NCBI GenBank assembly: GCA_023150875.1
Contig: JAKLKC010000012.1
Coordinates: 5,565-69,564, forward strand
Source of the DNA: Myxococcota bacterium
GTDB lineage: Bacteria; Myxococcota_A; UBA796; UBA9615; JAKLKC01
Direction of reading: 5' to 3'
DNA: 64,000 nt
The position numbers and the translations under genes are program-made. Positions 29,229 to 61,549 of the stretch are shown piece after piece (positions within the stretch are counted from its first letter, which is position 1; every line of letters begins with the position of its first letter). The notes beneath the pieces are model-generated. The model worked only from the letters and a program-made list of their open reading frames with translations, searched no databases and was not told the origin of the DNA.

Positions 29229-30935
29229 CTATCGCCTCCGCCGCCAGAGCCACGCCCCGACGCCCCCGGCCACCGCCAGGCCCGGCACCAGGATCACCGC
29301 CACCAGGATGGTGACCATGAGCTGGGGCCCCGTGAGCGACAGGGGCTGGTGCCCCGCCTCCTTGGGCCGGATGGACAGCAGGTCCCCCTCCCGGGCGAGG
29401 TAGGACACGGCGTTCTGGAACAGGTCGGCGTTGGCGCCGAAGCCCGCCAGGGCGTTGCTGGCGAAGTCGCTGTCTCCGAAGACCGCCAGGTCCGCCCGCT
29501 GGATCGGCGCCTCCCCGGCGTCGTCTCCGGCCGGCGCGGCGGGGGCCTCTCCGCCGGGCGCGATCTCCGCCCGGGCCGCGTCCTCGGAGGGCGGTGCTCC
29601 CGCCGCTCCCTCGCCCGCCGATCCCCCCTCCGGCGCCGTCGCCGCGGCCAGCCCCGCCGCCCGCGGGTCGATGGAGGCGAGCATCGCCAGGGCGAGGGGA
29701 CCCGCGTGGTCCTTCCCCTCCGCGAAGCTCGGGTCCGGGGTCTGGAGGTCCACCTTGCCGTACGCGGCGTCGCTGCTCCGCACCAGGGAGCTGCGGAGCA
29801 CCCCCGCCGGTGCCGCCTCGGACTCCGCCAGGGACGTGGCCACCGGGAACACGGTGGCGATCCCGCTCAGCCGCTCGGTGATGTCGTGGGGGGAGTAGTC
29901 CACTCCCACGACGTAGGTGTAGTCCGCCCCGAGGCGCCCGCCGTTGGGGTCCAGCACCAGGTCCCCCCGGGACTCGATCCCGAAGCGCCGCGCCAGGTCG
30001 GCGAGGCCGTGCTCCACCCCGGGGTCCAACATCAGCAACAGGCCCCGGTTCCGGGCGAGGTGGTCCGTCAAGAGCCGCCGGTCCGACTCGGAAAACGGCT
30101 TGGTGGGGCCGGCCACCACCACCACGTCGGCGTCCTCGGGGACCTGGGGCGTCTGGAAGAGGTCCAGGGCCTTCACCTCGTAGCCCTGCTTGCGCAGGGC
30201 CTCGGCGACGTGGCTGAACCCCTGCTCCGCCGCTTCTTCCAACCCTCTCTCGCCGTGGCCGGTGGTGAAGTAGACCGTCTTCTTCCCCTCCCGGGTCACC
30301 TTGATGATGGCGTTGGTCAGGTCGCCCTCGCCGGGGGCGACCACCTTCTCCTCCCGCGTACCGGAGGCCACGAACACCGTGCCGTCCTGGACGACCCCCT
30401 TCTGCTGGGCGGCCCAGGGCGCCGCCTCGGGGTCCACCAGCTCCACCTTCAGGTGGGGGGAGAGGCGCTCGTACCGCTCCATCAGCGAGATGAAGGCGTC
30501 CCGCCCCCCCGGGGTGCCGGCCTCGCCGCCGGCCCGGAAGAAGGCGGTGACGGCGACGTCCCGGTCGAGCTTGCCCACGAGGTCCGTGGTCTGCTCGCTC
30601 AGGGTGTGGATCTTCGCCTGGGTGAGGTCCCGGCTGGCGGGATGGCGCGCGGCGACGTAGTTCGCCAGCACCACCACCCCCAGCGCCATGGAGACGGCCA
30701 GCCACGACGCCGCCTGCTTGCGGGTGGCCCGCTGCCCGCTGGCCAGGGCGATGGCCTCCCAGTCCAGCCAGATCCAGGACGCGAGGCCGAGGGCGGCCAC
30801 GACGGTGACGACGGTCCAGACGGTGTCCCCGGGGGGGCGGCCGTCGTAGTAGCCGAGTCGGAACAGCAGGGTGACGGCGGCGAGGGCGCCGACGCCGCCC
30901 GCGATCCGTCCGATGACGATCCCCGCGCGGCCCAT
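29229..30935 (-). CDS. GldG-like ABC-transporter-associated protein
   Basis: N- and C-terminal TM segments, central periplasmic domain; downstream of ABC permease/ATPase on same strand. Confidence 0.7.
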   Translation of the reverse strand: MGRAGIVIGRIAGGVGALAAVTLLFRLGYYDGRPPGDTVWTVVTVVAALGLASWIWLDWEAIALASGQRATRKQAASWLAVSMALGVVVLANYVAARHPASRDLTQAKIHTLSEQTTDLVGKLDRDVAVTAFFRAGGEAGTPGGRDAFISLMERYERLSPHLKVELVDPEAAPWAAQQKGVVQDGTVFVASGTREEKVVAPGEGDLTNAIIKVTREGKKTVYFTTGHGERGLEEAAEQGFSHVAEALRKQGYEVKALDLFQTPQVPEDADVVVVAGPTKPFSESDRRLLTDHLARNRGLLLMLDPGVEHGLADLARRFGIESRGDLVLDPNGGRLGADYTYVVGVDYSPHDITERLSGIATVFPVATSLAESEAAPAGVLRSSLVRSSDAAYGKVDLQTPDPSFAEGKDHAGPLALAMLASIDPRAAGLAAATAPEGGSAGEGAAGAPPSEDAARAEIAPGGEAPAAPAGDDAGEAPIQRADLAVFGDSDFASNALAGFGANADLFQNAVSYLAREGDLLSIRPKEAGHQPLSLTGPQLMVTILVAVILVPGLAVAGGVGAWLWRRRR

Positions 30936-30939
30936 GGCG

Positions 30940-31728
30940 CTACCTCCAGCGCAGCGCTTCGACGCGCTGCTCCGCCAGGAACAGGAAGAAGCCGATGAAG
31001 GTGCCGAAGTAGAGGACGTCGCGCGAGTCGATCACCCCCTTGCTCAGCCCCTCGAAGTGCTTGAAGAAGCTCAGGTATTCCGAGACCTGCGCCGCCCAGC
31101 CCGAGCCTCCGAACCCCCCCGCCGAGCTGGCGCTTCCCGCCTCGCCGATCACCCAGAAGACCAGGAGCAACGCGAAGGAGAGGGCGGCGGCGATGATCTG
31201 GTTCTCGGTCATCGCCGAGGCCGCGAGCCCCACGGCGAGGAAGGCGCCCCCGAGGAGGAAGACCCCGAGGTAGGTCAGCAGCATGGGGCCGGTGTCGGGG
31301 GTGCCGTAGGCGTACAGCAGGACGGGCTGGTACAGCAGCGTGAGCTGCATCGCCGCGAAGAGGCCCACGGCCCCCAGGAACTTGCCCAGGACGATCTCCC
31401 ACGAGCTCACGGGCGATGTGACCAGCAGCTCGATGGAGCGCTGCTTCCGCTCCTCGGCCAGGAGGCGCATGGTGAGGATCGGGGTGATCAGCAGCAGCAC
31501 CACGAACATGGTCTGGTGGTAGGGCCCCACCAGGTGCTCCGTCAGGTTCACCTCGCCTCCGCCGTAGGGGCTGGACGGGCCGGTGCTCGCCTCGACGTAC
31601 CAGGGCAGGAAGAAGATCGCGAAGAACCATCCCCCGAGGAACGCGTAGGCGCCCATCATCACGTAGGAGATGGGCGAGGTCAGGTAGGTCCGCAGCTCGC
31701 GGCCGGCGATGGTCAGCACGTTGCGCAC
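30940..31728 (-). CDS. ABC-2 family transporter permease (GldF-like)
   Basis: 6-TM hydrophobic profile, 262 aa. Confidence 0.75.
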   Translation of the reverse strand: MRNVLTIAGRELRTYLTSPISYVMMGAYAFLGGWFFAIFFLPWYVEASTGPSSPYGGGEVNLTEHLVGPYHQTMFVVLLLITPILTMRLLAEERKQRSIELLVTSPVSSWEIVLGKFLGAVGLFAAMQLTLLYQPVLLYAYGTPDTGPMLLTYLGVFLLGGAFLAVGLAASAMTENQIIAAALSFALLLVFWVIGEAGSASSAGGFGGSGWAAQVSEYLSFFKHFEGLSKGVIDSRDVLYFGTFIGFFLFLAEQRVEALRWR

Positions 31729-31731
31729 GGC

Positions 31732-32685
31732 TCAGCCCTCCGCCCCGGCGTCCCGGATCAGCCCGAGGAAGATGTCTTCGAGGGAGGTGGAGACGCGGTG
31801 CATGGAAAGCAGGCCGAAGCCCCCCTCCACCACCGCCCGGGCGATCCCCTCCCGGGGATCCTCGCCCAGGGCGATGTCCGCCAGGTACGCCGCCCCGCCT
31901 CCCTCCCCGAGGCCGGCGGGGCCGGGGGCGACTCCCAGGACCCCGGGGACGGCCCGGATCGCCGCCAGCACCTCCGGGGAGGGGCGGGCGACCACCACCT
32001 CCACCCCCGCGGACCCCTTCACCCGCCGCTCCAGGGCCGCGAGGGTGTCCTGGGCCACGATCCGGCCGCGGTCGATGACCAGCACCCGGTCGCAGACCTG
32101 CTGGACCTCGGGGAGGATGTGGGTGGAGAGGACCACGGTGTGCGCCCCCTTGAGCCCGCGGATCAGCTCCCGGATCTCGATGATCTGCTGGGGATCCAGT
32201 CCCTCGGTGGGCTCGTCCATGACCAGCACCTCGGGGTCGTGGACGATGGCCTGGGCGAGCCCCACCCTCTGGCGGTAGCCCTTGGAGAGGTTGCCCACCA
32301 GCCGCCCGGTGACCTGGGGGAGGCCCGCCTTGTCGATGGCCCGGTCCACGGCGGCCCGCACCCCCGCCCGGGGCACCTGCTTGATGCGGGCGGCGAAGGC
32401 GAGGAAGTCCCGCACGGTCATGTCCAGGTAGAGGGGGGGCTGCTCGGGGAGGTAGCCCAGGCGGCGCTTGGCGTCCTTGGGCTTCTCCACCACGTCGAAG
32501 CCGGCCACCCGCGCCGAGCCCCCGCTGGGACCCAGGGAGCCGGCCAGGATCCGCATGGTGGTGGTCTTCCCCGCCCCGTTCCGGCCGAGGAAGCCCAGGA
32601 TCTCCCCCTTGGTCGCCTGGAAGGTGACGTCCCGGATGGCGTCGACCTCGCCGTATCGCTTGGTGAGGTTGTTGACCTCTATCAC
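31732..32685 (-). CDS. ABC transporter ATP-binding protein (GldA-like)
   Basis: Walker A 'GRNGAGKTT', signature 'LSKGYRQR', Walker B 'LVMDEPT'; GTG start with RBS aggaga. Confidence 0.85.
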   Translation of the reverse strand: MIEVNNLTKRYGEVDAIRDVTFQATKGEILGFLGRNGAGKTTTMRILAGSLGPSGGSARVAGFDVVEKPKDAKRRLGYLPEQPPLYLDMTVRDFLAFAARIKQVPRAGVRAAVDRAIDKAGLPQVTGRLVGNLSKGYRQRVGLAQAIVHDPEVLVMDEPTEGLDPQQIIEIRELIRGLKGAHTVVLSTHILPEVQQVCDRVLVIDRGRIVAQDTLAALERRVKGSAGVEVVVARPSPEVLAAIRAVPGVLGVAPGPAGLGEGGGAAYLADIALGEDPREGIARAVVEGGFGLLSMHRVSTSLEDIFLGLIRDAGAEG

Positions 32686-33614
32686 GCCTCGATCTCCTGC
32701 GCCCGCGGCCGCCCCGCGCTTCGGGGCCGCACCAACACGCGAGCCTCCGCCCATCTTCCCCCGCGGCGCCCCCTCCCGGCCGCCCCCGTCCGCCCGGCGC
32801 CGCTCCCGGGAGCGCCGGGGGCGGCCATTCTATTCCTTCCGCCCGGGATTTCACCCCCGCCCGGCGGGACCGTGCTCCCCCGCCCGCGTCCGGGCCCGGG
32901 CCCGGGCCCGTTCAGTCCCACCTCGGGAACAAGCGGCGCGCGACCGGGGGGCCATCCCGCCCTCCGGGGAGGGCGAGGGCGGGCGCGACAGTGGGGGCCT
33001 GACCGCCGCTCCGTCGCTCACCACGCCCCGTACGGCCCCCCTTCGGGGGGTCGGCGGCGAAACGTGAGTGACTGGGTGGGCGTCGAGGTCAAGCGTCCCC
33101 GCGGTCGCGGGCCAGCCGGAGGATCTCCTCGTGGAGCCAGCGGGTGAGCTGCTCCTCGGAGGAGGATAGGACGGACAAAGCGCCGATCTCGAGGGGGGCG
33201 CCGGGTATCGGGGGAGGCCACCTGGGTCCGCTCGGGGCGATTCGGCGCGGTAGCGAGCTGCGTGTGTGAGTTGTGTGGCATCGTGTGGACGCCTGGAAGG
33301 GCATCGGGCCTGCTGCGAGCGCTCGCCGGAGGGGGGATCGGCGGGGGTGCGCCGCGGAGGTCGGGCGAGTGAGGAGGTCGGGGCATGGGGGTGGGCCTGC
33401 GTGGCGGGGAGATGATCGCACATCGATGCCCGGGCATGCCTCGTCTGGACGGGGGAGTCGCCGGGAGCGCCGCGCGCGCCGGTGCGGAGCGGCTGCACTC
33501 TTGTCTTGAAGATGACGTTCGGGGCGCATTGATACCCATAGGGAAGGATTGGCCGCCCCGGTGAAAGCGGGCGCCGCCGGTCCGGTGTCCCCGCGCGCGA
33601 CGGGAGGCAGCCGC

Positions 33615-34127
33615 ATGGAGAAGCTGAAGTTGGAGTTCCGGGTGGAGATAGCCGACTACGCCAGTCCGATGCCCGCGGCGGTCGAGGTGCGCCTGAGGCG
33701 CAAGTCGGAGGAAGAGTACCTGAAGCTGAAGAAGCCCAAGGTCACCGGGTTCGTGTGGACGTTCGAGGGTGCGATCGAGGCAGAGGAGGCGGATGTCCGC
33801 TTCATGGTCTGGTTCCGAGCCCACCGGGGAGTGCGCTACGCCGTCGACGTGCACCGACTGACCTCGGAGGGGGCCAAGGACGAACCATCGGCGAGCCCGT
33901 CGGCAGCGGGGACCGAGGTAGTCCCGGACGAGGCGTCGACGAGCCGATCGGCACCAGAGCGCAAGGAAGCGTCGACCGACGCGCCCGAGGCCGGATCCGG
34001 CGGGAAGACGCATCGCCACCACTACGAGGGCGAGGTCGCCGCTGAGGACGTCAAGGACGGAATGGTTACCTACCGTGGAGGTCTCAATGAGGTTCCCAAG
34101 GGTACTGAGGTCGGCCTGGCTCGCTAG
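33615..34127 (+). CDS. hypothetical protein
   Basis: ATG MEKLKLEF... within 33549 ORF; moderate composition. Confidence 0.35.
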   Translation: MEKLKLEFRVEIADYASPMPAAVEVRLRRKSEEEYLKLKKPKVTGFVWTFEGAIEAEEADVRFMVWFRAHRGVRYAVDVHRLTSEGAKDEPSASPSAAGTEVVPDEASTSRSAPERKEASTDAPEAGSGGKTHRHHYEGEVAAEDVKDGMVTYRGGLNEVPKGTEVGLAR

Positions 34128-35238
34128 CTCGGTGATGGTCGTGCCCGCGGCCGCGGACGCGGCCGAGCCGGAGCCGCTCCTCCAGCTCACCGGGCCGGCT
34201 GGCTTCACGTTGTCGTTCCAGGAGAAGGAGAAGATCGCGACCGTCGCCACCGGCGGTGTGTCGCGGGACGGGACTCGGGTGAAGGTGTCCCTCAGCGCGC
34301 CGCTGGACGAGGAGTCCCGCATCGCCGCCCTGGCCGACGGCGACGGGCTGGCGGCCGGGTTCAAGCTTCGCTTCGACCTGGAGTACGACTCGGCTCACCA
34401 CTGGATGTTCGGAGACGCGTCGCGATTCGAGGCGCTCGAAGAGGCCGCCTGCGAGCTGGCCTACGAGCGGAATCCCGAGAAGCCGAAGCATTGCCCTCCG
34501 GGGACCATGCGCCAGTTCCTGGCGGAGGCTGTCGCCCAGCAGCGGGCGATCGGCGTCGGAACTCCCGATGTGGTCGCCGTCGCGCGGCGGGCGGACCGAG
34601 TGCCGTTCCGCGCTGGTCCTTCGGTTGCGGTGGCATTCGACCGCAAGGACGCCTACCTGGGCGACGTCGGCATCGACCCCCGGGCGTACACCGCGTGGTC
34701 GGTGTCCGTGGGAGGACACCTCACCGTCCAGCCGACCTTCTGGCTCCTGCTCCGGGTGGACGGAGGCGTCGAGATGGGGCAGGAGCTCGAGGGGGAGTCG
34801 GTCGAGCGATGCGAGCCCGTGGCCAGCAGCGACGCGTCGGTGACGGGCACGGCGTGCGAGGACGTCCTGCTGCTGGATGCCGAGCCGAAGCCGCAGGCGA
34901 CCGCCCGGGTGGGCTTCGCGGCGGCGTTGTTCGCCCAGAAGGCGTTCGACGGAAAGCTGGGGAAGGACGTGGTCCGTGTCCTCCCCGGCGTCGAGCTGCG
35001 TGCCGGCCTCGACGAGCTCTCGACGGACGGGGACGAGGACCTCATCGCGCTCCAGGTCCTCGGCTTCGTCACGCCCGTCACCGTCGCCACGCCGGACAGC
35101 TCGCCCGCCTTCGGAGGCGCCGCGCGCTTCGGGGTGGGGCTCCGGGTGCGCTTCGCCCTGGAGGACGACGACGAGGCAGCGTGGACGCCCGGGTTCCGGG
35201 ACGCCGCGCCCATACTGGTCGTCGGCGCCACGCTCTGA
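34087..35238 (+). CDS. secreted hypothetical protein
   Basis: Signal peptide 'MRFPRVLRSAWLASSVMVVPAAADA'. Confidence 0.45.
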   Translation: MRFPRVLRSAWLASSVMVVPAAADAAEPEPLLQLTGPAGFTLSFQEKEKIATVATGGVSRDGTRVKVSLSAPLDEESRIAALADGDGLAAGFKLRFDLEYDSAHHWMFGDASRFEALEEAACELAYERNPEKPKHCPPGTMRQFLAEAVAQQRAIGVGTPDVVAVARRADRVPFRAGPSVAVAFDRKDAYLGDVGIDPRAYTAWSVSVGGHLTVQPTFWLLLRVDGGVEMGQELEGESVERCEPVASSDASVTGTACEDVLLLDAEPKPQATARVGFAAALFAQKAFDGKLGKDVVRVLPGVELRAGLDELSTDGDEDLIALQVLGFVTPVTVATPDSSPAFGGAARFGVGLRVRFALEDDDEAAWTPGFRDAAPILVVGATL

Positions 35239-35295
35239 TCCCGCAACCTCCCCCGCTTCGTTCGCCGGCGTCCGCGCAGCGCGGGCGGGTTCGCG

Positions 35296-38100
35296 TCAGC
35301 CGTCCGTAGCCGCGCCCGCCGGGGCGAGCGGCTTGGCCAGCGCCGACCAGATCCGCCACGCCTCGCGCCAGCCAGCATCGCGATCCGCCACCACCGTGCC
35401 CAGCCGGCGCCGGACGGCCTCTCGCGTGCCGGGGAGCTCCTCGACGAGCCGCGGAGCCAGATCCAGGACGACCGCCGTCGGCGCCGTGGCGAGCAGTCTA
35501 CCGAGCCGACCCTCCGGACCGTTCGCCGCCACCGCCCGCAGGAGCCCCGTCATCGACCCGGGGTCGTGGTGCCACGCCGAGACCAGCGCGTCCTGGACCC
35601 CGTCCGCCGCCGACCCCAGCACCGGGTCCAGGAACGCCTCCGCCAGTATCGGGATCGGCATGGCCTCCCACAGTGCTCGATGGAGGACGAGACCCGTGTC
35701 CGCCCTCATCGCGGCCAGGACGTGCCCCCATGCCTCGTCGTCCAGGTCCGCCAGGGGCAGGCCCCGATGGAGGAGGCTCCTCAGCTCGCCGTGCGGTGCC
35801 GGCGAGGACAGCCGGGACGGTGGACACGCGCGCCACAGCGTCGCGGCCTCCTCCGGGTCGCCGGGCCGCAGCCAGGCGTTGAGATATGTTCCCCCGACGT
35901 CGTCCCACCCCCCGCGCCAGAGCGCGGCCAGGGTCTGGTCGCGCGTGCATCCGAGCTCTTCGCACTCCGCGATCAGCTCGGTCGGCGGCAGGCCGAGCAG
36001 CACCCAGGGGTCGGGGACCTGCGCCATGCCCCCGCCGTCCAGGGCCGCCGCGGCGAAGCGGGAGACGGCGAAGACCTGCGCCGCGCCGACGAGGGCGTTG
36101 GGGATGGCGGCGGCCTTCCCCCAGCGCCGCTCCAGGCGGGCGCCGAGCCGGAACGATCCGCGGGCCCACGGGGCCAGGGTCCCCGGCTCCCCCGACTTTC
36201 CCCCTTCGTACAGGCGGACGCCCCGGAGCGCCTCGAGCAGGTCCAGACTCGGATCCGCGTCGCACCAGGGGGCGAATACGCGGGGGAGCGCGCCGAGGGC
36301 CGCCCCGTCGAGCCCCTCGGTGAGCGCGAGGGACGCCACAACGAACGACCCGAAGCCGGCGGATCGCTCCGTGTCACTGTAGGAGCCGAGGAGCGGAAGG
36401 AGACGGGGCGGCGCCCCCCCCGCGAGGTCCATGAACCGACCCTGCGCGCGGACGAGCCTGCCGCGGAGCGCCGGGTCGACGCGGGCGCCGTCCAGGACGG
36501 CCAGCCCGGCCGCCCGGAACCCTGCCTCGACCGCCGCCACGACGGACACGTCGGCGAGGCCCGCCCCGTCGGCCGCATCGAGGATCCGCTCGAGCACCGG
36601 GTGAGCCGGGTTCCCGTGGAGGGCCTGCTCCAGGGCGAGCACCACCGGCGCGTTCCACCCCGGCCTCAGGAACGCCTCGCCGATCTCCTCGGCACGCCAT
36701 TCTCCGCAACGGGCGAGCTCGTCCCGGAGCAGCCAGGCCGCCAGCCAGCCATGGCGGATCCGGTACCGGCCCCCCGAGCATCGGCCCAGCCACCGGCCGG
36801 CGACCATCAGGCGGACGACCTCACGGCCGTCCGGTCGGAGAGCTGCTCGAAGGCCTTCGACCGGGACGTGCCCGGACCGCTCCTCCGCCCGCGCCAGGAA
36901 CCGATCCACCTCCTCCCGGTCCTCGCCGGGAGCCGCCTCCGTGGGGACGAGTCCAGACCACTCGTCTGGGGTGAGCCCTTCGTCTACGAAGGATCGGGCT
37001 GCGTCCGTGGGGACGTCCGGGCTCGTGAGGAGGCGCCGCAGCATCGTCCGCGCCAGACTCGGGCCCTCCCTGCGCATCCATTCCCCGTGCAGGGCTTCCT
37101 GGGGCACCCGGGCGAAGGTGGCCTTGAGGGTCATCCTTAGCGCTTTTTCCGGCGTCTCCTCGAACGCTTCCCAGGGCACCTCGTCCAGGACGCCGCACAG
37201 CGCGAGCACGTCTCCGGGCGTGCGCAGCCCGAGGTAAGGGTTCGTGGCGACCTCCTCGGCCCTGCGCCGGGAGAAACCGCCGTCCCGAGGGAGGCGGCGT
37301 TCGACCCACTTGAGGAAGGCCGCGATCCAGGACCGCAGGGGCGGCGTCTCGACGACGCTCCAGCCCGCCCCATCGTCCCCATCCGCCGCGTCCTCGTCCC
37401 GGTCCCGCCCAGCCCGGAGCCGGAAGGAACCCGTCCGTCCCTGCGGCGATCTTCCCGGCGGCGCGAACGGCGCCGCGACGGTAATCCACGCGTCCTCGGG
37501 CAGGCTCTCGAATCGCAATGCGTCGATGCCCTCGTCCGACTCCAGGTCGACGTAGACCCACTCGCCGAGCCGTATGGCCTCGCGGGCGGCCCGCGCGTCC
37601 GGCGCGACGACGACACGCGCGGAGCGACGGGCGGCGAGCCAGCGACCCAGCAGGGTCACGCCCGCGCCGGTAGGCGCGATCCACCAGGTGGCGCCGAAGG
37701 GCCCGAGGAACCCCGTCAGCTCCGGCGGAATCCCCGGGAACAAGCTTTCGGAAGCCAGATCGATCGGTCTCGCCGCGGGGAGGTCGTCCAGGGGGACGAG
37801 CGTCGGTCGTGGCTGCCCCTGCGCGTCGAGGACCTCCCGCAGGCGTTCCTCGAGGTCCGCCGCCTCCATTTCCAGCAGACGCGCCAGGGCCGCGCCTCGC
37901 GCGGGGTTCGTCCCGAACCACCACTCGGAGTGATCCCCGCGGTCGAGCTTCCGCAGCTCGTTGCCGACGGAGCGGGGATTCATGTCGGCATTCGGCCACC
38001 CGTCTGCCGCGACGAGCCGCCGGCCGAGGGCGTCGAACGACTCCCCGGGTTGGAGCAGCTCCTTGAGCCATCCCATCGTCACCTCCGACGTCCCGAGCAT
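35296..38100 (-). CDS. large uncharacterised protein (934 aa), divergent neighbour of pVip
   Basis: Long non-Gly/Pro-biased ORF; no recognisable catalytic motifs by eye. Confidence 0.55.
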   Translation of the reverse strand: MLGTSEVTMGWLKELLQPGESFDALGRRLVAADGWPNADMNPRSVGNELRKLDRGDHSEWWFGTNPARGAALARLLEMEAADLEERLREVLDAQGQPRPTLVPLDDLPAARPIDLASESLFPGIPPELTGFLGPFGATWWIAPTGAGVTLLGRWLAARRSARVVVAPDARAAREAIRLGEWVYVDLESDEGIDALRFESLPEDAWITVAAPFAPPGRSPQGRTGSFRLRAGRDRDEDAADGDDGAGWSVVETPPLRSWIAAFLKWVERRLPRDGGFSRRRAEEVATNPYLGLRTPGDVLALCGVLDEVPWEAFEETPEKALRMTLKATFARVPQEALHGEWMRREGPSLARTMLRRLLTSPDVPTDAARSFVDEGLTPDEWSGLVPTEAAPGEDREEVDRFLARAEERSGHVPVEGLRAALRPDGREVVRLMVAGRWLGRCSGGRYRIRHGWLAAWLLRDELARCGEWRAEEIGEAFLRPGWNAPVVLALEQALHGNPAHPVLERILDAADGAGLADVSVVAAVEAGFRAAGLAVLDGARVDPALRGRLVRAQGRFMDLAGGAPPRLLPLLGSYSDTERSAGFGSFVVASLALTEGLDGAALGALPRVFAPWCDADPSLDLLEALRGVRLYEGGKSGEPGTLAPWARGSFRLGARLERRWGKAAAIPNALVGAAQVFAVSRFAAAALDGGGMAQVPDPWVLLGLPPTELIAECEELGCTRDQTLAALWRGGWDDVGGTYLNAWLRPGDPEEAATLWRACPPSRLSSPAPHGELRSLLHRGLPLADLDDEAWGHVLAAMRADTGLVLHRALWEAMPIPILAEAFLDPVLGSAADGVQDALVSAWHHDPGSMTGLLRAVAANGPEGRLGRLLATAPTAVVLDLAPRLVEELPGTREAVRRRLGTVVADRDAGWREAWRIWSALAKPLAPAGAATDG

Positions 38101-38218
38101 ATCCGGCCCCGAAGCGAGGTCAACCCGTCTGCATCGAGCACATCACGATGTGCATCATGCAAGCGGAATGCAGGCCACTCGCGCTCCGCCTCGCGAGCCT
38201 CCAAGCTGATGGCCGGAG

Positions 38219-39052
38219 GTGCCCGTGAGACCGATCGCCGCCAACTACCACCTGCTCCAACCCTGCGACGCCGCCTGCCGCTTCTGCTTCGCCACGTTCC
38301 GCGACGTCCGCGGGCGTCTGCCGCTCGCCGACGCGCTGCGCGTCCTCGACCTGCTCCGCGCGGCCGGGATCGAGAAGATCAACCTCGCCGGAGGCGAGCC
38401 GACCCTGCATCCGCGGATCGGGGACATCGTCGCCCACGCCCGCCGCATCGGGTTCGTCACCAGCATCGTCACCAACGGGTCCCGCCTCGGGGAGCTGCTG
38501 GACCACCACGCGGCCGACCTCGACTGGGTGGGCCTCTCGGTCGACTCGGCGGACGAGGCCACCGAGATCGGGATCGGCCGCGGCCGCGGCGACCACGTCC
38601 GGCGCGCCGTGGCGCTGGCGTCGCGCTGCCGGACGCTGGGGATCCGCGTCAAGCTCAACACGGTGGTCTGCGCCCTCAACTGGCGGGAGGACCTGAGCCC
38701 GCTGGTGCTCGCCGTGCGCCCCGACCGTTGGAAGATCTTCCAGGTCCTCCCCATCGCCGGCCAGAACGACGGGGCCATCGACGACCTGCTCGTCACCGCG
38801 GATCAGCTCCACGCCTTCGTCGAGCGGCACCGGGACCTCGCCCGCCGGGGCTTCCCGCCCGTGGTCGAGGACAACGACGCCATGAAGGGGTCCTACGTCA
38901 TGGTCGACCCTCTCGGACGCTTCTACGGCAACGCCACCGGCCGGCACGTATACAGCGACCCGATCCTAGATGTCGGCGTCGAGGCCGCGCTCTCGCAGGT
39001 CGGCTTCGACGCCGCGAAGTTCGACCGCCGCGGGGGGAGGTACGCGTGGTAG
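38219..39052 (+). CDS. prokaryotic viperin (pVip) radical-SAM antiviral enzyme
   Basis: Near-colinear similarity to human viperin/RSAD2: 'NYHLLQPCDAACRFCF' (CxxxCxxC), 'EKINLAGGEPTL', 'RWKIFQVL', 'MKGSYVMVD', C-terminal 'ILDVGVEAAL...GFD...RGGRYAW'. Confidence 0.9.
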   Translation: MPVRPIAANYHLLQPCDAACRFCFATFRDVRGRLPLADALRVLDLLRAAGIEKINLAGGEPTLHPRIGDIVAHARRIGFVTSIVTNGSRLGELLDHHAADLDWVGLSVDSADEATEIGIGRGRGDHVRRAVALASRCRTLGIRVKLNTVVCALNWREDLSPLVLAVRPDRWKIFQVLPIAGQNDGAIDDLLVTADQLHAFVERHRDLARRGFPPVVEDNDAMKGSYVMVDPLGRFYGNATGRHVYSDPILDVGVEAALSQVGFDAAKFDRRGGRYAW

Positions 39053-39311
39053 CGCCGGGGCCCCGGGTGGCGATCCTCGGCGGTGACGGACGCCAGTGCG
39101 GGAGGTGGGGGGGAGAGGGGATCGCCGTCCACTTCATGGCCGGCCGCGCGGGTGGCAACGGGGAGCCGAGGCGGCTGGAGGCGGCCCTGAGATCGGGGTC
39201 CATCACCCGCGTCGTGATCCTCGCGCGGTGGAACGGCCACGCGACCACCCGGCGCATTCGGCGGGTGTGCCGAACCCTGGGGGTGCCGGTCGAGGTCGTG
39301 CCGTGACGTCC

Positions 39312-41348
39312 TCAGGCCACCCCCAGCGCCTTGAACGCCGCCTGCCGCACGTCTCCGAAGAAGATCGGGTCCACCCGCTCCAGGACGTCGGGATGGACGT
39401 CCAGGATCTGGCGCTTGTTCTCGATGGGGACGAGGGCGCGGCGGGCGCCATTGTCCATGGCGACCTGGAGGGGCTCGGTCAGGGAGCGGACCGGCTTGAT
39501 GTTGCCCTGCACGCTCATGTCGCCCAGCACCAGCAGGCTCGCCTGGGGCGGGGACCGGCGCAGGATGGAGTAGGCGGCGACGAAGAAGGCGACGCCGATC
39601 TCCGCCTCCACCCGGTTGCCCAGCAGGTCGATGACCTCGACGTGCAGGTCCGACGTGTCGAGCTCCCGGGCCACGCCGAAGGGGGTCTTCTGGGCGTGGA
39701 GGTGGGCGAAGGCGCGCTGGACCGACTCCTTCATCGCCCCGCTCACGCCCCCCGCCAGCTTCAGCTTGCCGGTCCCCGACGACTGCGACACCTCCACCCG
39801 GTACAGGCCCACCGTGCCGTCCCCGCTGACCGAGGCCGTGTAGACCGTGCCCGGCGGCAGGGGGTCGGTGGAGATCAGGTCGCGCCCCCCCTGCTCGGGA
39901 ACGCCGACGAAGCGCTCCTCGCCCGTCTCGTGGTCGACATAGCTGAAGCTCGTCTGGTAGTACTCGAAGGAGCCCATCTTCTTGAGCTGCTCCTTCACCC
40001 GGCGCCGGCCCTCCAGGGCGAAGGCCAGGACCTCCTCCAGGTCCTCCTTGGAGACCTCGCCGTGGGGGTGCAGGACCTTCACCAGCCCCGACACCGTGCG
40101 CCGCACCGCCTTGCGGTCCCGGGCGTTCAGGTGGGAGCCGAGGTCGAAGTGGTGGTCCAGCGTCTCGGTGAAGTTGAGGCGGCGCAGCTCCCGCATCGCC
40201 TCGGCCAGGTAGTCCACCACGAAGCCGTAGTGGTCGGTGAAGTGTTCGTTGCGCATCTTCGGCACCTCCCACCCCGGCAGGTAGAAGTGCAGCCGGTCGA
40301 TGAACGCCATGTCGTCCCGGATCACGTCCGGCATCGGCGCGAACAGGTGTCCCGTCTGGACCATCACGTCCACCGGCTGCTGGGTGTTGCCGAACATCGC
40401 CACGCTGGCGTAACCCGACGCCTCCTCCTGGCCCCGCTGGTAGCGCCCCGACTCGCAGTAGGTCTTGAGGGTGGTCACCACCTCCTTCGGCATCTTCTGC
40501 AGGTCGGCCACCTCGTCGAAGCCCACCACGTCCCAGATCTGCACCATCCCCTTCTGGCGACCGCTCATGTGGCCGAAGAGGTTGGCCACCGTCGTCGGAC
40601 CCGTCAGCAGCGCCGCGTAGGGCGACAGCTCCTGCACCGCGTAGCTCTTGCCCGTGCCCCGCGGGCCCAGCTCCACCAGGTTGAAGTTCTGCTCGCACAG
40701 GGGCACCAGGCGCGCCAGGAAAAGCAGCTTCAGCCGCCGCGCCATCACCGTCGGCTCGTAGCCCATGCTGCGAAGGAGCAGGTCGATCCACTCGTCGGTC
40801 GTGAACCCGGCCCGCGTCCGCCGGTAGTCGTCCAGGTCGAAGGTGGCGAGCTGGATGGGGGTCAGCTTCTCGATCCAGAACGGGTACCTGCCCCGGTTCT
40901 CGTCGTCGGGCAGGAAGCGCAGGTCCACCTGAGCCCAGATCCCGCCGGTGAGCAGGCGGTCGTAGGAGCGGACGTAGTGCTCGGGCACGCGCACGTGCTG
41001 GTGGCCGAAGTTCGCCAGCTCCGCCCAGTAGTCCGAGTCTACCAGCCGCACCTTCACTTTGTCGATGAAGGTCCAGCGCCCCTTCTCCCGGACCCGGCTC
41101 TGGGCCTTCATGGACTCGTCGGGCCGGATGTAGTTCTCGGCCAGCGTGTCCTTCACCACCTGCAGCCCCATCTGGATCGCCATCTCGTCCGACGAGGCGC
41201 AGTACTTGCCGAGCAGGTACTCCAGGACGAAGACCGGGACGTTCGCCCCCACCTTCACCTTGCGGACGAGGTCCTTGCGGACCACGCGCCCCGCGAAGAG
41301 GCGGTTCACTTTGTCGTCGAGCGCGTCGCGCGTCGGGGGCACGTTCAC
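39312..41348 (-). CDS. brxL: BREX Lon-like protease BrxL
   Basis: N-terminus 'DDKVNRLFAGRVVRKDLVRKVKVGANVPVFVLEYLLGKYCASSDE' matches BrxL family; Walker A 'LGPRGTGKS'; C-terminal Lon-like domain; GTG start. Confidence 0.9.
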   Translation of the reverse strand: MNVPPTRDALDDKVNRLFAGRVVRKDLVRKVKVGANVPVFVLEYLLGKYCASSDEMAIQMGLQVVKDTLAENYIRPDESMKAQSRVREKGRWTFIDKVKVRLVDSDYWAELANFGHQHVRVPEHYVRSYDRLLTGGIWAQVDLRFLPDDENRGRYPFWIEKLTPIQLATFDLDDYRRTRAGFTTDEWIDLLLRSMGYEPTVMARRLKLLFLARLVPLCEQNFNLVELGPRGTGKSYAVQELSPYAALLTGPTTVANLFGHMSGRQKGMVQIWDVVGFDEVADLQKMPKEVVTTLKTYCESGRYQRGQEEASGYASVAMFGNTQQPVDVMVQTGHLFAPMPDVIRDDMAFIDRLHFYLPGWEVPKMRNEHFTDHYGFVVDYLAEAMRELRRLNFTETLDHHFDLGSHLNARDRKAVRRTVSGLVKVLHPHGEVSKEDLEEVLAFALEGRRRVKEQLKKMGSFEYYQTSFSYVDHETGEERFVGVPEQGGRDLISTDPLPPGTVYTASVSGDGTVGLYRVEVSQSSGTGKLKLAGGVSGAMKESVQRAFAHLHAQKTPFGVARELDTSDLHVEVIDLLGNRVEAEIGVAFFVAAYSILRRSPPQASLLVLGDMSVQGNIKPVRSLTEPLQVAMDNGARRALVPIENKRQILDVHPDVLERVDPIFFGDVRQAAFKALGVA

Positions 41349-41352
41349 GGGG

Positions 41353-43920
41353 CTACCTCAGGAGGCTCGTGGGCAGGGCGGGGGACGAGGCGAGGACCGC
41401 CCCCGAGGCCGGATCCAGGACCACCACCTTCACCGACGCCGCGTCCTCGCCGCCCAGCGTCAGGCCGACGTGGGCCTTCGCGCCCGGCCGGACCCGCAGC
41501 ACCCCCCGCTCCCGGTCGAGCTCGCCCCCGCTGACCATGCCCGCCGCGCCCACCTGCTGCTGCTCCGACAGGACCACCACCCGCAGCTCCACCGCCTCGG
41601 GCGCGAACAGCGGCGGCGCCTTCACCTCGACCTCCACCACGAAGACCCGGTTCGTGATGCGCTCGGGCAGCCCCGCCAGGACCACCTCGATCCCGCCCGT
41701 CCCCGGCGCCGGCTCCCCCGCCGGGATCCGGAAGGAGAGGACCGGGATCACCAGCTCCTGGAGGCTCGTGCTCCCGTGGTGGAAGCTCAGGTCCCCGCCG
41801 GCCTTGAACACCCCCAGGCCCGCCGGGAACACGAGCTCCAGGTCGCCGGCGTAACCGAGCTCCCCCGCCGACACCCGCACCGTCCCGGGGGGCGTCGCGC
41901 CGCCGCGGCCGATCCAGACCCGCCGGTGGAGCTCCACCGTATCGCCGCCGGGGGCGTCGGTCTTCATGTCGTCCCCCTTCCGCAGCCCGAAGAGGTGGCC
42001 GTGGTCGGCGGTCACCACGAAGTGCTCCACCCCCGCGGCCGAGAGGCGCCGGGCCGCCCGGGCGAGGTCGCCGATCACCCCCTCCATTGCCCGCCGGGCC
42101 AGGTGGTCGTCCCCTGTCTCGCCCAGGTAGTCGATCTCCGTCGACCGCACCACCACCAGGGACCGGCCCGCGACCCGCCGCCGCAGCTCGGACGCCTTGT
42201 CCTGGAGCACCCGGCTCAGGGTCAGGTCCACGACGTCGGGCACCCGCGCCTGCAGGTACCTCGTCCGCTCCGTCACCCCCGAGAGCGGCACCCCGTCCAC
42301 CAGGGCCGCCACCTTCCCCTTGTGGGCCACCACCGACAGGTTCGCGGACGCCCCCGGCAGCAGCGCCGCCATGCCCACGGGCGTGATGGTGGGCAGGGCC
42401 GCCACGGCGGGGAGCAGGTGGAGGTCCAGGGCCCCCGGGAGCTGCCGCGCGAGCTCCACCCCCATCTCGTACCGCAGCGCGTCGACCAGGAAGTACGCCA
42501 CCGGCCCTCCCCGGGTCGCCACCACGTCCGGGTGGACGCGCGCCTGGTGCAGGACCCCCGGCACGCTCCAACCCGCCCGGGCGAGGGCCGCGGTGAAGCC
42601 CCGGGCCATGTCGTGGAGCAGCCGCTCCGCGTCCCGGAGCACGACGCTGATCGCCTTCTCGAACAGGGACTCGTCGCCGACCCGCCCCCGCCACGTCTCC
42701 AGCGCCCGCTGGGCGGCGTCCACCCGGTGCCACCCGTCCTCGGCGGCGTAGCCCGCCACCCAGGTCTCCGGACCCGCCGAGGTCGGGGGCAGGCTGCCCT
42801 TCACCGCCCCGATCCGCAGGCCGAGCACGGCGACGCGCCGCGCCACCTCCCATTGCTCCTTGCGGGGGACGCGGGTGGCCTCGTCGGTCCACTCCACCCA
42901 GAAGCTCCGCTCGCGATCCTCCACCACCTCCAACGCCTCGCCGAACCGTCCCCGCTCCAGCAGCTCGGCGCACCAGGAGAGCAGGAGCCGCTCCTCGAAC
43001 TCGAAGGTGTCGATGCGCCCCAGGTCCTCCGCCCGCACCTTCGCCCTCGCCAGGTGGAACTCCTGCTCCACCTGCCGGGCCCGGGCCGCGTAGGCCGGGG
43101 CGTGGTCCCGCCGGAAGCGCCGGGCCAGCTCCCGCACCTGCTCGCGTTGGGCCTCGGTCTCTGGCGCCGGCTGCCCGGACATCGACGCGGGCGGAGGCGC
43201 CCGGAGGTCCATCCGGAACTCGCCCAGCAGGACGTAGCGGGCGAGGCGGCCGCGGGCCTGGGCCAGGGGAAGGCCGTCGTCGAGGTGCAGGCCCACCTTC
43301 GAGGCGACGAGGCGGTACAGCTCCGCGGCGGCGCCCTTCTCGGCGATCTCCGCGTCCCGGGCCTCGTCGGCGAGCCACCGGACCAGGATCTCGGAGTCGG
43401 CGGCGTCCCCGAAGATCACCTTCAGCCGCGACGCCTCGCCGCCGTCCCGCTGCGCCAGGAAGGCCACCACGTCGTCGTAGGTGGCGCGCCCTCCCTCCAG
43501 CACCTCGTCGATGACCCCGTCGGTGTAGCGCCGGCGCAGGCAGTCCCGGGCCTGTCGGGGGAAGTCCCAGTCCAGGCGGCGCCCGGCCTTCTGCAGCTCC
43601 ATGAGCACGTCCCGGGCGGGCTCGGGCAGCTCCGCGGGCACGTAGACCAGGAGGGGCGGATCGGGGGGGCCGTCCCCCGCGAAGAAGGGCTCGACGGCGT
43701 CCCGCACCGCGAACCACGAGCCCTCGAAGGTGACGAGGCGGGCCCGACCGTCGCCCAGGTCCACCTCGAAGACGTCGGGGTGCTCGTCGCTCCAGGCACA
43801 CGCGCCGGCCAGGTCGTCGAAGAAGGGCCGGAAGGCGCCGGCGGGGTCCACGACGACGGCGACACCCCGACGCAGCGCGGCGCGCACCTGCTCGGCGAGG
43901 TGGGTGTGGAAGGGGTTCAT
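41353..43920 (-). CDS. pglZ: BREX alkaline-phosphatase-superfamily protein PglZ
   Basis: 'YFLVDALRYEMGVEL', 'VVTADHGHL' PglZ motifs; ATG at 43918-43920 overlaps stop of upstream gene (ATGA). Confidence 0.9.
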   Translation of the reverse strand: MNPFHTHLAEQVRAALRRGVAVVVDPAGAFRPFFDDLAGACAWSDEHPDVFEVDLGDGRARLVTFEGSWFAVRDAVEPFFAGDGPPDPPLLVYVPAELPEPARDVLMELQKAGRRLDWDFPRQARDCLRRRYTDGVIDEVLEGGRATYDDVVAFLAQRDGGEASRLKVIFGDAADSEILVRWLADEARDAEIAEKGAAAELYRLVASKVGLHLDDGLPLAQARGRLARYVLLGEFRMDLRAPPPASMSGQPAPETEAQREQVRELARRFRRDHAPAYAARARQVEQEFHLARAKVRAEDLGRIDTFEFEERLLLSWCAELLERGRFGEALEVVEDRERSFWVEWTDEATRVPRKEQWEVARRVAVLGLRIGAVKGSLPPTSAGPETWVAGYAAEDGWHRVDAAQRALETWRGRVGDESLFEKAISVVLRDAERLLHDMARGFTAALARAGWSVPGVLHQARVHPDVVATRGGPVAYFLVDALRYEMGVELARQLPGALDLHLLPAVAALPTITPVGMAALLPGASANLSVVAHKGKVAALVDGVPLSGVTERTRYLQARVPDVVDLTLSRVLQDKASELRRRVAGRSLVVVRSTEIDYLGETGDDHLARRAMEGVIGDLARAARRLSAAGVEHFVVTADHGHLFGLRKGDDMKTDAPGGDTVELHRRVWIGRGGATPPGTVRVSAGELGYAGDLELVFPAGLGVFKAGGDLSFHHGSTSLQELVIPVLSFRIPAGEPAPGTGGIEVVLAGLPERITNRVFVVEVEVKAPPLFAPEAVELRVVVLSEQQQVGAAGMVSGGELDRERGVLRVRPGAKAHVGLTLGGEDAASVKVVVLDPASGAVLASSPALPTSLLR

Positions 43921-44915: not shown

Positions 44916-45355
44916 GGCGTCACCTTCAGGATGCCCTTCGCCCGACCGTCCCGGGTGAGCTGGAAGTATTCCATGTGGCGTGCCAGCGCGGGCGTGCCTT
45001 CCGCGCCGACGAGCACGTCGAACCCGTACCTCGTCCCCACGCGCCGGCGGGAGAGGAGGTTGTACTCGAAAGGGCGCAGCTCGGACTGGAAGTCGTGGTC
45101 CGCACGGAGGGCGAGCACGAGGTCGATGTCCCCGGGATCGGGCTCGGCGGTCACGAAGCTCCCGTCGACGGCGAGCCAGGCGATGGCGGGCGTGGTCCTC
45201 GCCTCGGCCAGGAAGGCGCGCAACCTCTCCACGAGCACATGGCGACCGGGATGCCCCAGGCAGAAGCGCCCGAAGCGCTCGCGCACCTCCGCGAAGGTGC
45301 ACTCGTGCACCCCCGGAGGCAGCAGCCCGTCGGGGGTCAGCTCCGGGATCGGCAT
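44912..45355 (-). CDS. nucleotidyltransferase-like small protein (DUF-type, 'TPDGLLPPGVH' family)
   Basis: 'LAVDGSFVTAEPDPGDIDLVL' fits GSx9-13DxD NTase motif; N-terminal 'PELTPDGLLPPGVHECTFAEV' signature. Confidence 0.55.
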   Translation of the reverse strand: MPIPELTPDGLLPPGVHECTFAEVRERFGRFCLGHPGRHVLVERLRAFLAEARTTPAIAWLAVDGSFVTAEPDPGDIDLVLALRADHDFQSELRPFEYNLLSRRRVGTRYGFDVLVGAEGTPALARHMEYFQLTRDGRAKGILKVTP

Positions 45356-45482
45356 GGCGCCTCGGGGAGAAGCGGGGAGAGCTGGCGGGCGGAACGGCTC
45401 ATGCACGGTCCCCGACCGGCCTGCGGTCCGCCACATCGGGCGCACCGATCCGGGGGATGCTGCCGGAGGGCGGGAGCGCGGC

Positions 45483-45542
45483 GACGCCCCGGCGCCGCGC
45501 GGCGCGCACCAGCTCGGCGAGGTGGGTGTGGAACGGGCTCAT
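45483..45542 (-). pseudogene. remnant of a second pglZ 5' end (20 codons, MSPFHTHLAELVRAARRRG...)
   Basis: 45483-45542 ~ 43861-43920 at nt level incl. ATGA junction; similarity stops abruptly. Confidence 0.5.
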
Positions 45543-57786: not shown

Positions 57787-58312
57787 CGGATCTGCTGGCC
57801 CGGCGCGGGGTTGGCTGGCTACCGTCAGAGGCAACGACGGGCGCTGGATCCACCCCGGGCCCTCGTTGTCCCTGGACCGTCGGCGCAGCCAACTGCGCGC
57901 CGCCGGTCGGAGGCGAGATGATGCCCGCCGCCGCCGACGCGCCCGCCATCTCCGACGGCACCCCGCGCCCGTTCGGGGGCAATGATCCCGACGACGGCGC
58001 ATTGACGTGGCCCGTCGCGGCGGCCGTCGGCGCCTGCCCGTCCTGCGATCTGACGGCGCCGGACGCTGCCAACGGTGCCGTCGGCGTCGGCATGGGACCG
58101 AACAGCGGCCAGGCGGCATGCACCGTTCGCGGCACCCGTCCTCGCGTCCCGACGGTGGGTCTCCGCCTGACCGCGACGGGGCCCCCCTCGTTCCGGGCGT
58201 GGGCGTCCTGCCTGACCCTCGGCGACCTGGAGGACGTGCTGCGGAAGGCGGTCGCGTAGGCGGCGACGTTACGTCAAGTTCTCGGCGTCCCACCCCATCT
58301 GGAGCCTCCGCC

Positions 58313-60082
58313 ATGCCCATCGTCGGAGCCGCCTACCTGCGGTGCAGCGACCCCCGCCAGGACAAGAGCATCGAGCAGCAGCGAGAGGAGATCCTCCGCC
58401 GCGCCGAGGCCGACGGCGTCGTGATCCCGCCCGAGAACTGGTTCGTGGACGAGGGCCTCAGCGGGCGCTCGACACGGAAGCGCCGCGCCTATCTGGATCT
58501 CATCCGCGTGGCCGAGGTCCAGCGCGACGCCCGCACCGAAAAGCGCCGCGCCCAACCCCAGCGCATCGACCGGCTCTACGTCTGGGCCTTCAGTCGCCTC
58601 GCCCGCAACATGTTCGATGCCCTCCGCGCCTTGGCGGCACTCGACGAGGCCGACATCGACGTGGTCTCGCTCACCGAGCCCGATGCCGGGGATCGCTCCT
58701 TCCGGAAGCTGATCCGGCCAATCCTGGCATGGCTCGCCGAGAGGTACAGCGAGGAGTTGTCCCGCAACGTCCAGCGCGGCATGCGGTCCCAGGCCGAGCG
58801 GGGTTTCTGGCAGTACGGGAACCCGCCCTACGGTTACGCGCTCGAGGAGGGCCGGCTCGTCGTCACCGACGAGACCCGCGCCGACTTCGAGACCGTCCGG
58901 CGCGTCTTCGCGGTCTACCTCGAAGGCCGAGACGGGGCGAAGCGTCTCGCCGAGAGACTCACCGCCGAGAGCATCCGGCCGCCCTCGCGGCGCGATTGCC
59001 CGCGCGATCGGCTCGGCTACGCCTGGCGCCCCAAGCACGTCCTCCAGATCCTTCGAAACCCGGTGTACTGCGGCCACATCGTCCACGACGGCGAGGTCGT
59101 CGCCCGCGGGGTCCACGAGGCCGCGGTGTCCGACGAGGACTTCGCCCGGGTCGCGGCGCTCCGAAAGCTCAAGGAGCGCGTCAAGCTCGACGGAATCGGG
59201 AACGGCCACCACCCGATCCACATCGGCGAGCGCGGGCTGTTCACCCCCTGGCTCCGCTGCGGCTCCTGTAGCGGGCGCATCCGCGTCACCGTCGGCGGGC
59301 GCTCGGGGAAGGCCGACTACTTCTACTACTCATGCGCCTCCCGCGCCGAGAACAAGGCCACCTGTCCCGGCCTGTCCATCCGGACCGAGAAGCTGGACGA
59401 GGCGGTCCTCGCCTACATCCACGACCACGTCCTGTCCCCCGTCAACGTCCAGGCCCTCATCGATCGGTCCCTCGCCGATCTGGCCGAGCAGCCCGACGAC
59501 ATCGCCCAGCAGCGCGCCGCGATTGAAGCGACCATCGCCGAGCTGGACCGCCGTATCCGCCTCGTCGGCCACCAAGTCCTGGACGGCATCCTGGCCCCGT
59601 CCGACGCGAAGGCGCTCAACGCCCCGCTGCTCGCCCAGCGCGAGACCGCCCAGCTCCGGCTCGCCTCCCTGCCGCAGCGGCGCGAGTTGCCCACCGTCGT
59701 CGACTGCGACCGCTTCCGCGCGGCCGTGCTGGAGGCGTGGACGGCGAAGCCCCTCGACGACCGCCGCGCCGCGCTGGACCGTCTGCTCGACCGGATCACC
59801 CTCGGCGAAGCCGGCGCCCATATCGAGTACCGCGCGAAGGACGAGCCCCCCGCGTTTCGTCACCAAGCACCCGAAGGCCCGCCGTACACCCCCATGTCCG
59901 CGCGGGTGCCGTCGGGGTCGTTCCAGGTGGGATCGGGGTCGGCGGCGTCTCGGAGGGGGGAGGTGGGGCGGAGGTGCCAGTCGTCGTTGTCGGGGTCGCC
60001 GTCGGGAGTGGCGGTCACGAAGGCGGGGTCCACCGAGAGGTTGCCGTCGGTGCCCGTCCAGGGGCGGATGGCGCCGTCGTAG
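58313..60082 (+). CDS. large serine recombinase (integrase)
   Basis: 'AAYLRCSDPRQ' catalytic Ser region, 'VWAFSRLARN', recombinase domain, zinc ribbon 'CGSCSGR...CASRAENKATC', coiled-coil; ORF reads through the repeat so true C-terminus is uncertain. Confidence 0.8.
   Translation: MPIVGAAYLRCSDPRQDKSIEQQREEILRRAEADGVVIPPENWFVDEGLSGRSTRKRRAYLDLIRVAEVQRDARTEKRRAQPQRIDRLYVWAFSRLARNMFDALRALAALDEADIDVVSLTEPDAGDRSFRKLIRPILAWLAERYSEELSRNVQRGMRSQAERGFWQYGNPPYGYALEEGRLVVTDETRADFETVRRVFAVYLEGRDGAKRLAERLTAESIRPPSRRDCPRDRLGYAWRPKHVLQILRNPVYCGHIVHDGEVVARGVHEAAVSDEDFARVAALRKLKERVKLDGIGNGHHPIHIGERGLFTPWLRCGSCSGRIRVTVGGRSGKADYFYYSCASRAENKATCPGLSIRTEKLDEAVLAYIHDHVLSPVNVQALIDRSLADLAEQPDDIAQQRAAIEATIAELDRRIRLVGHQVLDGILAPSDAKALNAPLLAQRETAQLRLASLPQRRELPTVVDCDRFRAAVLEAWTAKPLDDRRAALDRLLDRITLGEAGAHIEYRAKDEPPAFRHQAPEGPPYTPMSARVPSGSFQVGSGSAASRRGEVGRRCQSSLSGSPSGVAVTKAGSTERLPSVPVQGRMAPS
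59823..59885. repeat. right copy of imperfect direct repeat (perfect core 59839-59875), putative attR
   Basis: See 17241..17303; covers the last 8 codons + stop of gene 59860..61527. Confidence 0.6.
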
Positions 60083-61527: not shown

Positions 61528-61549
61528 GATCCCGCGCCCCGCCACCGGC

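Follow-up and report, generated by a model that had tools for sequence, protein, structure and literature searches.

Prokaryotic viperins (pVips) are usually treated as single-gene systems that are occasionally aided by a kinase. They have an anti-phage activity of their own, and most of them occur without an associated kinase (PMC10865869; bioRxiv 10.1101/2023.09.13.557418). A nucleotide kinase resembling CMPK2 is paired with 12% of bacterial viperins (bioRxiv 10.1101/2023.09.13.557418). Genes for HicA or RelE also adjoin some pVips, immediately upstream or downstream (Gerdes 2024, PMC10865869). The pVip considered here is encoded in a stretch of 64,000 nucleotides from a Myxococcota bacterium (assembly GCA_023150875.1, contig JAKLKC010000012.1, positions 5,565 to 69,564 of the forward strand), referred to below as the window. 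The enzyme is of a known kind, and the conserved two-gene cassette it belongs to has not been described before. The pVip gene overlaps that of an 86-residue protein related to DUF2325, and the two probably make up a translationally coupled pVip–DUF2325 cassette at the brxL end of an island of Septu genes and BREX genes, the latter probably of type 1, with the divergent gene for a 934-residue protein on the other side a bystander.

The G+C content of the window is 73%. Because stop codons are rare at this composition, genes were called by the G+C content of third codon positions (GC3) and then compared with the public gene calls of the same strain. The proteins under study are identical to the NCBI hypothetical proteins L6R50_08510 and L6R50_08520. 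Coordinates of the features discussed are collected in Table 1.

The pVip translation contains the cluster motif C16xxxC20xxC23 and ends in GGRYAW. Its open reading frame (ORF) has a GC3 of 0.96, and the public gene calls start it at GTG 38225, 5 nt past a GGAGG. The Pfam family Radical_SAM (PF04055; SAM, S-adenosylmethionine) is matched with 68.3 bits against a cutoff of 29.5. The NCBIfam model NF038283 (viperin_w_prok, an equivalog with the name "viperin family antiviral radical SAM protein") gives 282.6 bits against a cutoff of 180, and the PADLOC pVip models give 278 bits. In a phmmer search of the PDB, residues 4-277 align with the RSAD2 structures 5vsl (E 8e-48) and 6q2p (E 2.5e-48), and further viperin-like enzymes in the PDB are matched as well. 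Judged by these sequence matches, full-length to solved viperins, the window pVip is a genuine prokaryotic viperin. A preliminary description of this DNA had proposed as much, pointing to colinearity with RSAD2 and to a CxxxCxxC motif plus a terminal GGRYAW, all of which the translation and the PDB alignment bear out. Two further points of that description stand: Pfam, PADLOC and NCBIfam scans of the genes on both sides of pVip (29229 to 45445) matched no nucleotide kinase, and the BREX and Septu genes alongside confirm a defence-island setting.

The same description placed pVip directly tail-to-tail with brxL and took the 934-residue protein's gene to be its only immediate neighbour. Both statements overlooked the 86-residue protein's gene, 39046-39306 on the forward strand, which lies between pVip and brxL and overlaps the pVip stop. 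The start of the small ORF is GTG 39046, within the pVip end ...TAC GCG TGG TAG, so that the two genes share 7 nt (GTGGTAG). At its other end, 5 nt separate the gene from the stop of the convergent brxL. The junction GGGAGGTAYGCNTGGTAG is conserved in the window and in two related loci, L076 and L078. In a third relative, L021, the junction reads GGGAAGTACTCGTGGTGA: it has a Lys codon, a TGA stop and GGAAG in place of GGAGG, and the overlap is the same. The AGG in the Gly-Arg codons of the pVip tail is a rare codon that forms the Shine-Dalgarno sequence of the small gene, and it appears to be kept by selection.

Sixty-five homologues of the 86-residue protein were found, 43-74% identical, and many of them are flagged as PF10087 (DUF2325). 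Of 52 homologues, 34 matched this family at E<=0.01, the best of them at E 1.4e-6. From these matches the protein is best described as a member of a divergent DUF2325-related subfamily. The subfamily alignment shows strong conservation across its members. Its invariant residues group in three loops, GGDGR, GGNGE and RWNGH, which follow strands 1-3 of a four-stranded, parallel beta-alpha-beta sandwich in an AlphaFold2 (AF2) model with a predicted local distance difference test score (pLDDT) of 80. In the model the three glycine-rich loops sit at the C-terminal edge of the sheet. No PADLOC 2.0 or NCBIfam model matches the protein, and none of the five papers found to mention DUF2325 links it to viperin or defence. 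Flavodoxins are much longer than 86 residues, and the glycine-rich loops are unlike the motif that binds flavin mononucleotide. Because of this short length and these loops, we take an electron-donor (flavodoxin) role to be unlikely.

The overlapping pair recurs in all four of the closest pVip relatives found (4/4), in three genomic contexts when the window is included. L021 encodes a pVip 70% identical to that of the window, followed by a conserved DUF2325 N-terminus; the contig ends inside the small ORF. In L076 the pVip is 69% identical and in L078-L081 it is 61% identical, each with an overlapping DUF2325 gene, and the same overlap is seen in the gene table of the P0030 locus. The first context is the edge of the BREX island in the window. 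In the second (L078), the pair lies 3' of a gene for a CHAT protein plus two unknown genes. In the third (L076 and the P0030 locus), it lies 3' of genes for an AAA_11/12 helicase, a PLD nuclease and a CARF-AAA-HTH sigma54 activator. An unknown gene of about 390 codons is also present in the loci with this activator, beside the helicase and the nuclease. In the sister locus L075 the activator matches the PADLOC model RtcR_PspF1 with 416 bits.

A gene that overlaps a Trp codon followed by a stop in this manner must begin with Met or Val and then Val. Such an N-terminal [MV]V is found in 42 of the 65 DUF2325 homologues, and the signature forecasts correctly whether pVip is present or absent in 7/7 loci of known context. 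The partner is absent beside more distant pVips (<=52% identical, 48 loci). For example, in L023 (164-8882) a 52%-identical pVip on a contig of 261 kb adjoins the BREX genes for BrxC and BrxA, and thus the adjacency of pVip and BREX recurs; there an ORF of 147 codons overlaps pVip from upstream and DUF2325 is absent. We also considered whether the cassette came from a phage or plasmid and rejected this: plasmids and viral contigs contain no match to the DUF2325 subfamily, and the pVips of viruses reach only 37-42% identity.

Promoters of the sigma54 type (YGGCAYG-N4-GTGCY) were found in L075 (5956-5971), L076 (5128-5143) and L021 (349-364). In each case the site is 30-31 nt before the start of pVip or DUF2325 and directly 3' of the gene for an RtcR-like activator. 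The pattern TGGCAC-N5-GTGCT has four matches in 84 loci, three of which are this position before a pVip or DUF2325 start. The arrangement suggests that in these relatives viperin expression may be induced by a signal through the CARF-sigma54 regulator. In the window, neither a sigma54 promoter upstream of pVip nor a CARF-sigma54 activator was found.

By homology, the pVip would turn a nucleoside triphosphate (NTP; CTP, GTP or UTP) into the 3'-deoxy-3',4'-didehydro-NTP (ddhNTP), and this product would terminate phage RNA synthesis. The 86-residue protein would be made from the same mRNA, with its start overlapping the pVip stop and its ribosome-binding site within the codons for GGRYAW. It could serve as an accessory or regulatory subunit, and its binding partner may perhaps be pVip itself or else a phosphorylated ligand, either the substrate NTP or the ddhNTP product. 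The 934-residue protein's gene would stand outside the system, as a divergent member of a pseudo-AAA+/alpha-solenoid family that keeps its own promoter element of TGCAT repeats and that the cassette and island abut. A fuller scheme is conceivable, and we offer it tentatively, with more doubt than confidence. It is a two-component viperin immunity in which ddhNTP synthesis depends on a phosphate- or nucleotide-binding alpha/beta protein of 86 residues for its control, supply or detoxification, and in which a CARF-sigma54 (RtcR-like) regulator switches the system on in sister loci.

The large protein on the other side of pVip probably has 926 residues. All of its homologues and the NCBI model (926 aa) begin with MGWL, and for this reason ATG 38076 is the likely start. 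Searches of Pfam, PADLOC, NCBIfam and PDB sequences gave no real match. Structure prediction, which the preliminary description had recommended, did yield a fold; the comparison of that fold with known structures gave nothing significant. The AF2 model, built with nine family members, has a pLDDT of 76 and a predicted template modelling score (pTM) of 0.62. At the N-terminus it has a helical domain, after which come a beta-alpha-beta domain (residues 138-251, approximately), a region of helices plus a beta-hairpin and, at the C-terminus, a long alpha-solenoid. In this model the alpha/beta domain is degenerate AAA+/STAND-like: it has the P-loop NTPase fold of STAND and AAA+ proteins, and its Walker A position reads APTGAGVT, with Val for Lys, in departure from GxxxxGK[ST]. 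In the family this position is mostly GxGR[ST]; Lys is present in 8 of the 79 representatives in which the motif was located, and Val only in the window copy. A Foldseek search of the PDB with the model found nothing at E<=1e-3 and a weak HEAT/ARM-like similarity, and comparison with Avs was non-significant (E 0.023, template modelling score (TM) 0.12).

A word-indexed search for homologues of the 934-residue protein retrieved only 9 proteins, profile included, and an exhaustive profile search revealed the true size of the family. It comprises at least 598 representative clusters of proteins of about 870 residues, and 363 of these clusters reach E<=1e-30. Almost all have a length of 850-900 residues and match from end to end. 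For scanning genomes an N-terminal sub-alignment worked, whereas the alignment over the full length was too divergent. The genomic context was sampled in 17 distinct loci, all from Polyangiaceae-type or "deltaproteobacterial" metagenome-assembled genomes, and in every locus sampled the family was in Myxococcota (Polyangiaceae-type) genomes only.

The gene is converged upon by a 387-codon gene (34075-35238, forward strand) whose product has a signal-peptide-like N-terminus, MRFPRVLRSAWLASSVMVVPAAADA. An ORF of about 170 codons (33549-34127, forward strand) precedes it, and 32830-33550 appears to be non-coding. As a candidate partner the 387-residue protein was rejected: it has no family match, its N-terminus resembles a signal peptide, and it is shared with no locus of the 934-residue family and no pVip locus.

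The preliminary description assigned a shared promoter region to 38101-38218, between the divergent pVip and 934-residue protein genes. The intergenic region is there, and a sigma70-like promoter in it fits the start at ATG 38076. What is conserved in it belongs to the large gene: the region carries the 934-residue family's own element, since TGCAT repeats are conserved upstream of the family gene. The pentamer TGCAT/ATGCA, typically in the form TGCATnATGCA, is enriched 5' of every family member examined (L001-L020). In 17 loci, 83 copies were counted within 200 nt 5' of the family gene; the resulting density, 4.9 per 200 nt, is about 30 times the background of 0.16. The sole cluster of this pentamer in the 64-kb window is 38077-38276, centred on the palindrome at 38125-38166. 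From this pattern the repeats are a conserved, putatively operator-like element, and autoregulation through the N-terminal helical domain of the 934-residue protein is a possibility.

The preliminary description allowed the 934-residue protein two roles, an accessory of pVip or an independent defence gene. As an accessory it would be a STAND/Avs-like sensor or regulator expressed from a shared divergent promoter. Co-occurrence is absent both ways. Neither pVip nor BREX was present in the loci of the family (0/17), nor was any other window neighbour, and no family member was present in the 49 pVip loci sampled (0/49, 290 kb). The four closest pVip loci have different upstream genes that do not belong to the family. 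The family itself has housekeeping neighbours: five loci have the genes for 2-oxoglutarate dehydrogenase E1/E2/E3 (sucA/sucB/lpd) downstream, four encode a FadB-like enzyme, and upstream there is an M50 peptidase gene in four loci and a gene for RpoD plus one for a nitroreductase in three. That these neighbours recur indicates vertical inheritance. When the family's ownership of the intergenic element, the lost Walker A Lys (Val in the window, Arg in most of the family) and the missing PADLOC and Pfam matches are added, an accessory role is highly improbable. A second reading makes the protein an undescribed defence protein in its own right, a STAND-like pseudo-ATPase that came to lie at the island edge by chance. 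Adjacency to a defence island speaks for it, as does an architecture reminiscent of Avs/NLR proteins, and in a few family loci (L001, L009 and one with Dcm plus Vsr) the neighbours are defence-like. The PADLOC matches among 50 family neighbours come to only two MzaA-like proteins and one Dcm plus Vsr pair, and the conserved housekeeping synteny, the uniform length, architecture and upstream element across the family, the degenerate P-loop and the poor Foldseek score against Avs leave this reading improbable too. Essentially, the family is widespread without pVip or defence association, and the gene is most likely an unrelated host gene.

The remaining alternative concerns the small gene. Here pVip would act alone, and DUF2325 would be merely co-transcribed and belong elsewhere; CARF-sigma54 (RtcR-like) circuits, for instance, might use it as a small component for output or feedback. 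The anti-phage activity of prokaryotic viperins on their own, mostly kinase-free (PMC10865869; bioRxiv 10.1101/2023.09.13.557418), is compatible with this, and so are two loci with a DUF2325 gene and no pVip: in L075 the gene for the CARF-AAA-HTH activator and a sigma54 promoter lie ahead of the DUF2325 gene, and in L077 this gene occurs without the activator. Against it, the pair keeps its 7-nt overlap in two contexts that lack a sigma54 activator (the window and L078), the overlap signature is found in 42/65 homologues, and the rare AGG codon of the Shine-Dalgarno sequence is apparently under selection. We regard this alternative as unlikely, and the coupled pVip–DUF2325 cassette beside a bystander as the better account. 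Several observations weigh against that account all the same. The occurrence of DUF2325 without pVip in L075 and L077 means that its function may not be viperin-specific, and the window 86-residue protein itself has no Pfam match at E<=1. The window copy of the 934-residue protein is an outlier, 34% identical to its nearest representative against a family median best hit of 43%, and it lies outside the canonical synteny of the family; it could therefore be a paralogue that was captured. Defence-like genes lie upstream in two to three family loci, among them L009 and L001. In L009 (1304-3383), the PADLOC candidate system PDC-M51 lies divergently upstream of the family gene; its component PDC-M51A (464 bits), a radical-SAM protein that binds B12, is the sole neighbour of that class in the 17 family loci, and PDC-M51B is thymidylate-kinase/VakA-like (182 bits), with an ORF of 82 codons alongside. 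Near the family gene in L001 there are genes for an EVE protein and a BrxD-like ATPase. The left boundary of the island, moreover, was placed by inference.

Beyond the small gene the window contains, from a BREX set probably of type 1, BrxB, BrxC, PglX, PglZ and BrxL; BrxA was not identified in the window. The BREX operon is interrupted between pglX and pglZ by a complete Septu pair and a DUF6932/PDC-M63A gene. In the public gene calls a 332-codon gene of unknown function lies upstream of a shorter PglZ of 855 residues. Inside pglX, at 48001-50000, the G+C content is 0.64, compared with about 0.73 elsewhere. The island probably ends on the right at a large serine recombinase gene, which is transcribed divergently from the BREX operon. 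The 3' end of this gene overlaps by about 220 nt the 3' end of a convergent beta-helix/NosD-like ORF (59860-61545, reverse strand), and this overlap might be the site where the island integrated.

Table 1. Features of the pVip locus and of the adjoining island (positions in the window)
Feature	Position	Strand	Remarks
926-aa protein	35296..38076	-	934 aa if read from ATG 38100; GC3 0.88 for ORF 35296-38100
Sigma70-like promoter of the 926-aa gene	38096..38123	-	TTGACC-16-TATGCT; 1 site vs 0.1 expected in shuffles
Imperfect palindrome	38125..38166		20-nt arms, core GCACATC-AC-GATGTGC; overlaps four TGCAT/ATGCA pentamers that extend just beyond
pVip, radical-SAM enzyme	38219..39052	+	ORF 277 aa; probable start GTG 38225, giving 275 aa
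GGAGG Shine-Dalgarno sequence	39036..39040	+	formed by pVip tail Gly-Arg codons GGG AGG; 5 nt before the 86-aa start
86-aa DUF2325-related protein	39046..39306	+	GC3 0.90; 65 homologues; NCBI L6R50_08520
BrxL, Lon-like protease of BREX	39312..41348	-	Pfam BrxL_N, BrxL_ATPase, Lon_C; PADLOC BrxL 952 bits
PglZ	41353-43920	-	ORF extends to 44598; strong match
DUF6932/PDC-M63A gene	44912-45445	-	between pglX and pglZ
Septu PtuB	45539-46228	-	201 bits
Septu PtuA	46225-47562	-	470 bits
PglX	47511-51617	-	strong match
BrxC	51664-55218	-	strong match
BrxB	in ORF 55230-56492	-	strong match
265-aa gene	56602-57399	-	weak BrxE match only
Large serine recombinase	58007..60082	+	Pfam Resolvase, Recombinase, Zn_ribbon_recom; divergent from BREX operon

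On the left, two tandem tRNA-Ser genes (CGA and GGA anticodons) lie within 5987-9324, and they are followed by ORFs whose N-termini, we presume, resemble DnaX and RecR. These tRNA genes and ORFs suggest that the left third of the window is core chromosome. An element of the IS21 family, with an IstA-like ORF and IstB (25066-26939, forward strand), lies between the core genes and a block of a 559-codon gene and ABC-transporter genes; IstB was assigned from a precomputed Pfam match on the same strain's contig.

A pVip clade that is co-translated with a tiny conserved protein points to an unstudied accessory step, which could be substrate supply, regulation or self-protection. DUF2325, on which there is essentially no literature, gains its first testable functional context. 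If viperin is indeed induced through CARF and sigma54 in bacteria, this would be a functional parallel to interferon-induced viperin in animals. With the 934-residue neighbour a bystander, experimental effort is saved.

Compared with known systems, the 934-residue protein differs from Avs and from AAA+ initiator and clamp-loader ATPases in its missing Walker A Lys, its lack of hidden Markov model (HMM) matches and the housekeeping context of its family. The RtcR-type CARF-AAA+-HTH activators (PADLOC RtcR_PspF1) lie directly upstream of pVip–DUF2325 or of DUF2325 in L075, L076 and the P0030 locus, whereas the window cassette faces the promoter region of the 934-residue protein's gene, without activator or sigma54 promoter. 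The pVip-adjacent HicA and RelE genes are likewise small genes directly beside pVip; their products have RNase toxin folds, whereas the fold predicted for the 86-residue partner is a parallel beta-alpha-beta sandwich. With the CMPK2-like viperin–kinase pairs the cassette has in common a two-gene arrangement and a small accessory gene genetically linked to viperin. The partner differs in having no kinase similarity in Pfam, NCBIfam or PADLOC, in being half the size of a nucleoside monophosphate kinase, and in carrying the GGDGR, GGNGE and RWNGH loops instead of a Walker A motif. Like the stand-alone pVips (Bernheim et al. 2021, cited via PMC10865869 and bioRxiv 10.1101/2023.09.13.557418), the window enzyme has the CxxxCxxC motif, full-length colinearity with RSAD2, a terminal Trp and a defence island around it without a kinase. 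Unlike them, it belongs to a clade in which the viperin gene is always followed by a translationally coupled gene for an 86-residue, DUF2325-like protein.

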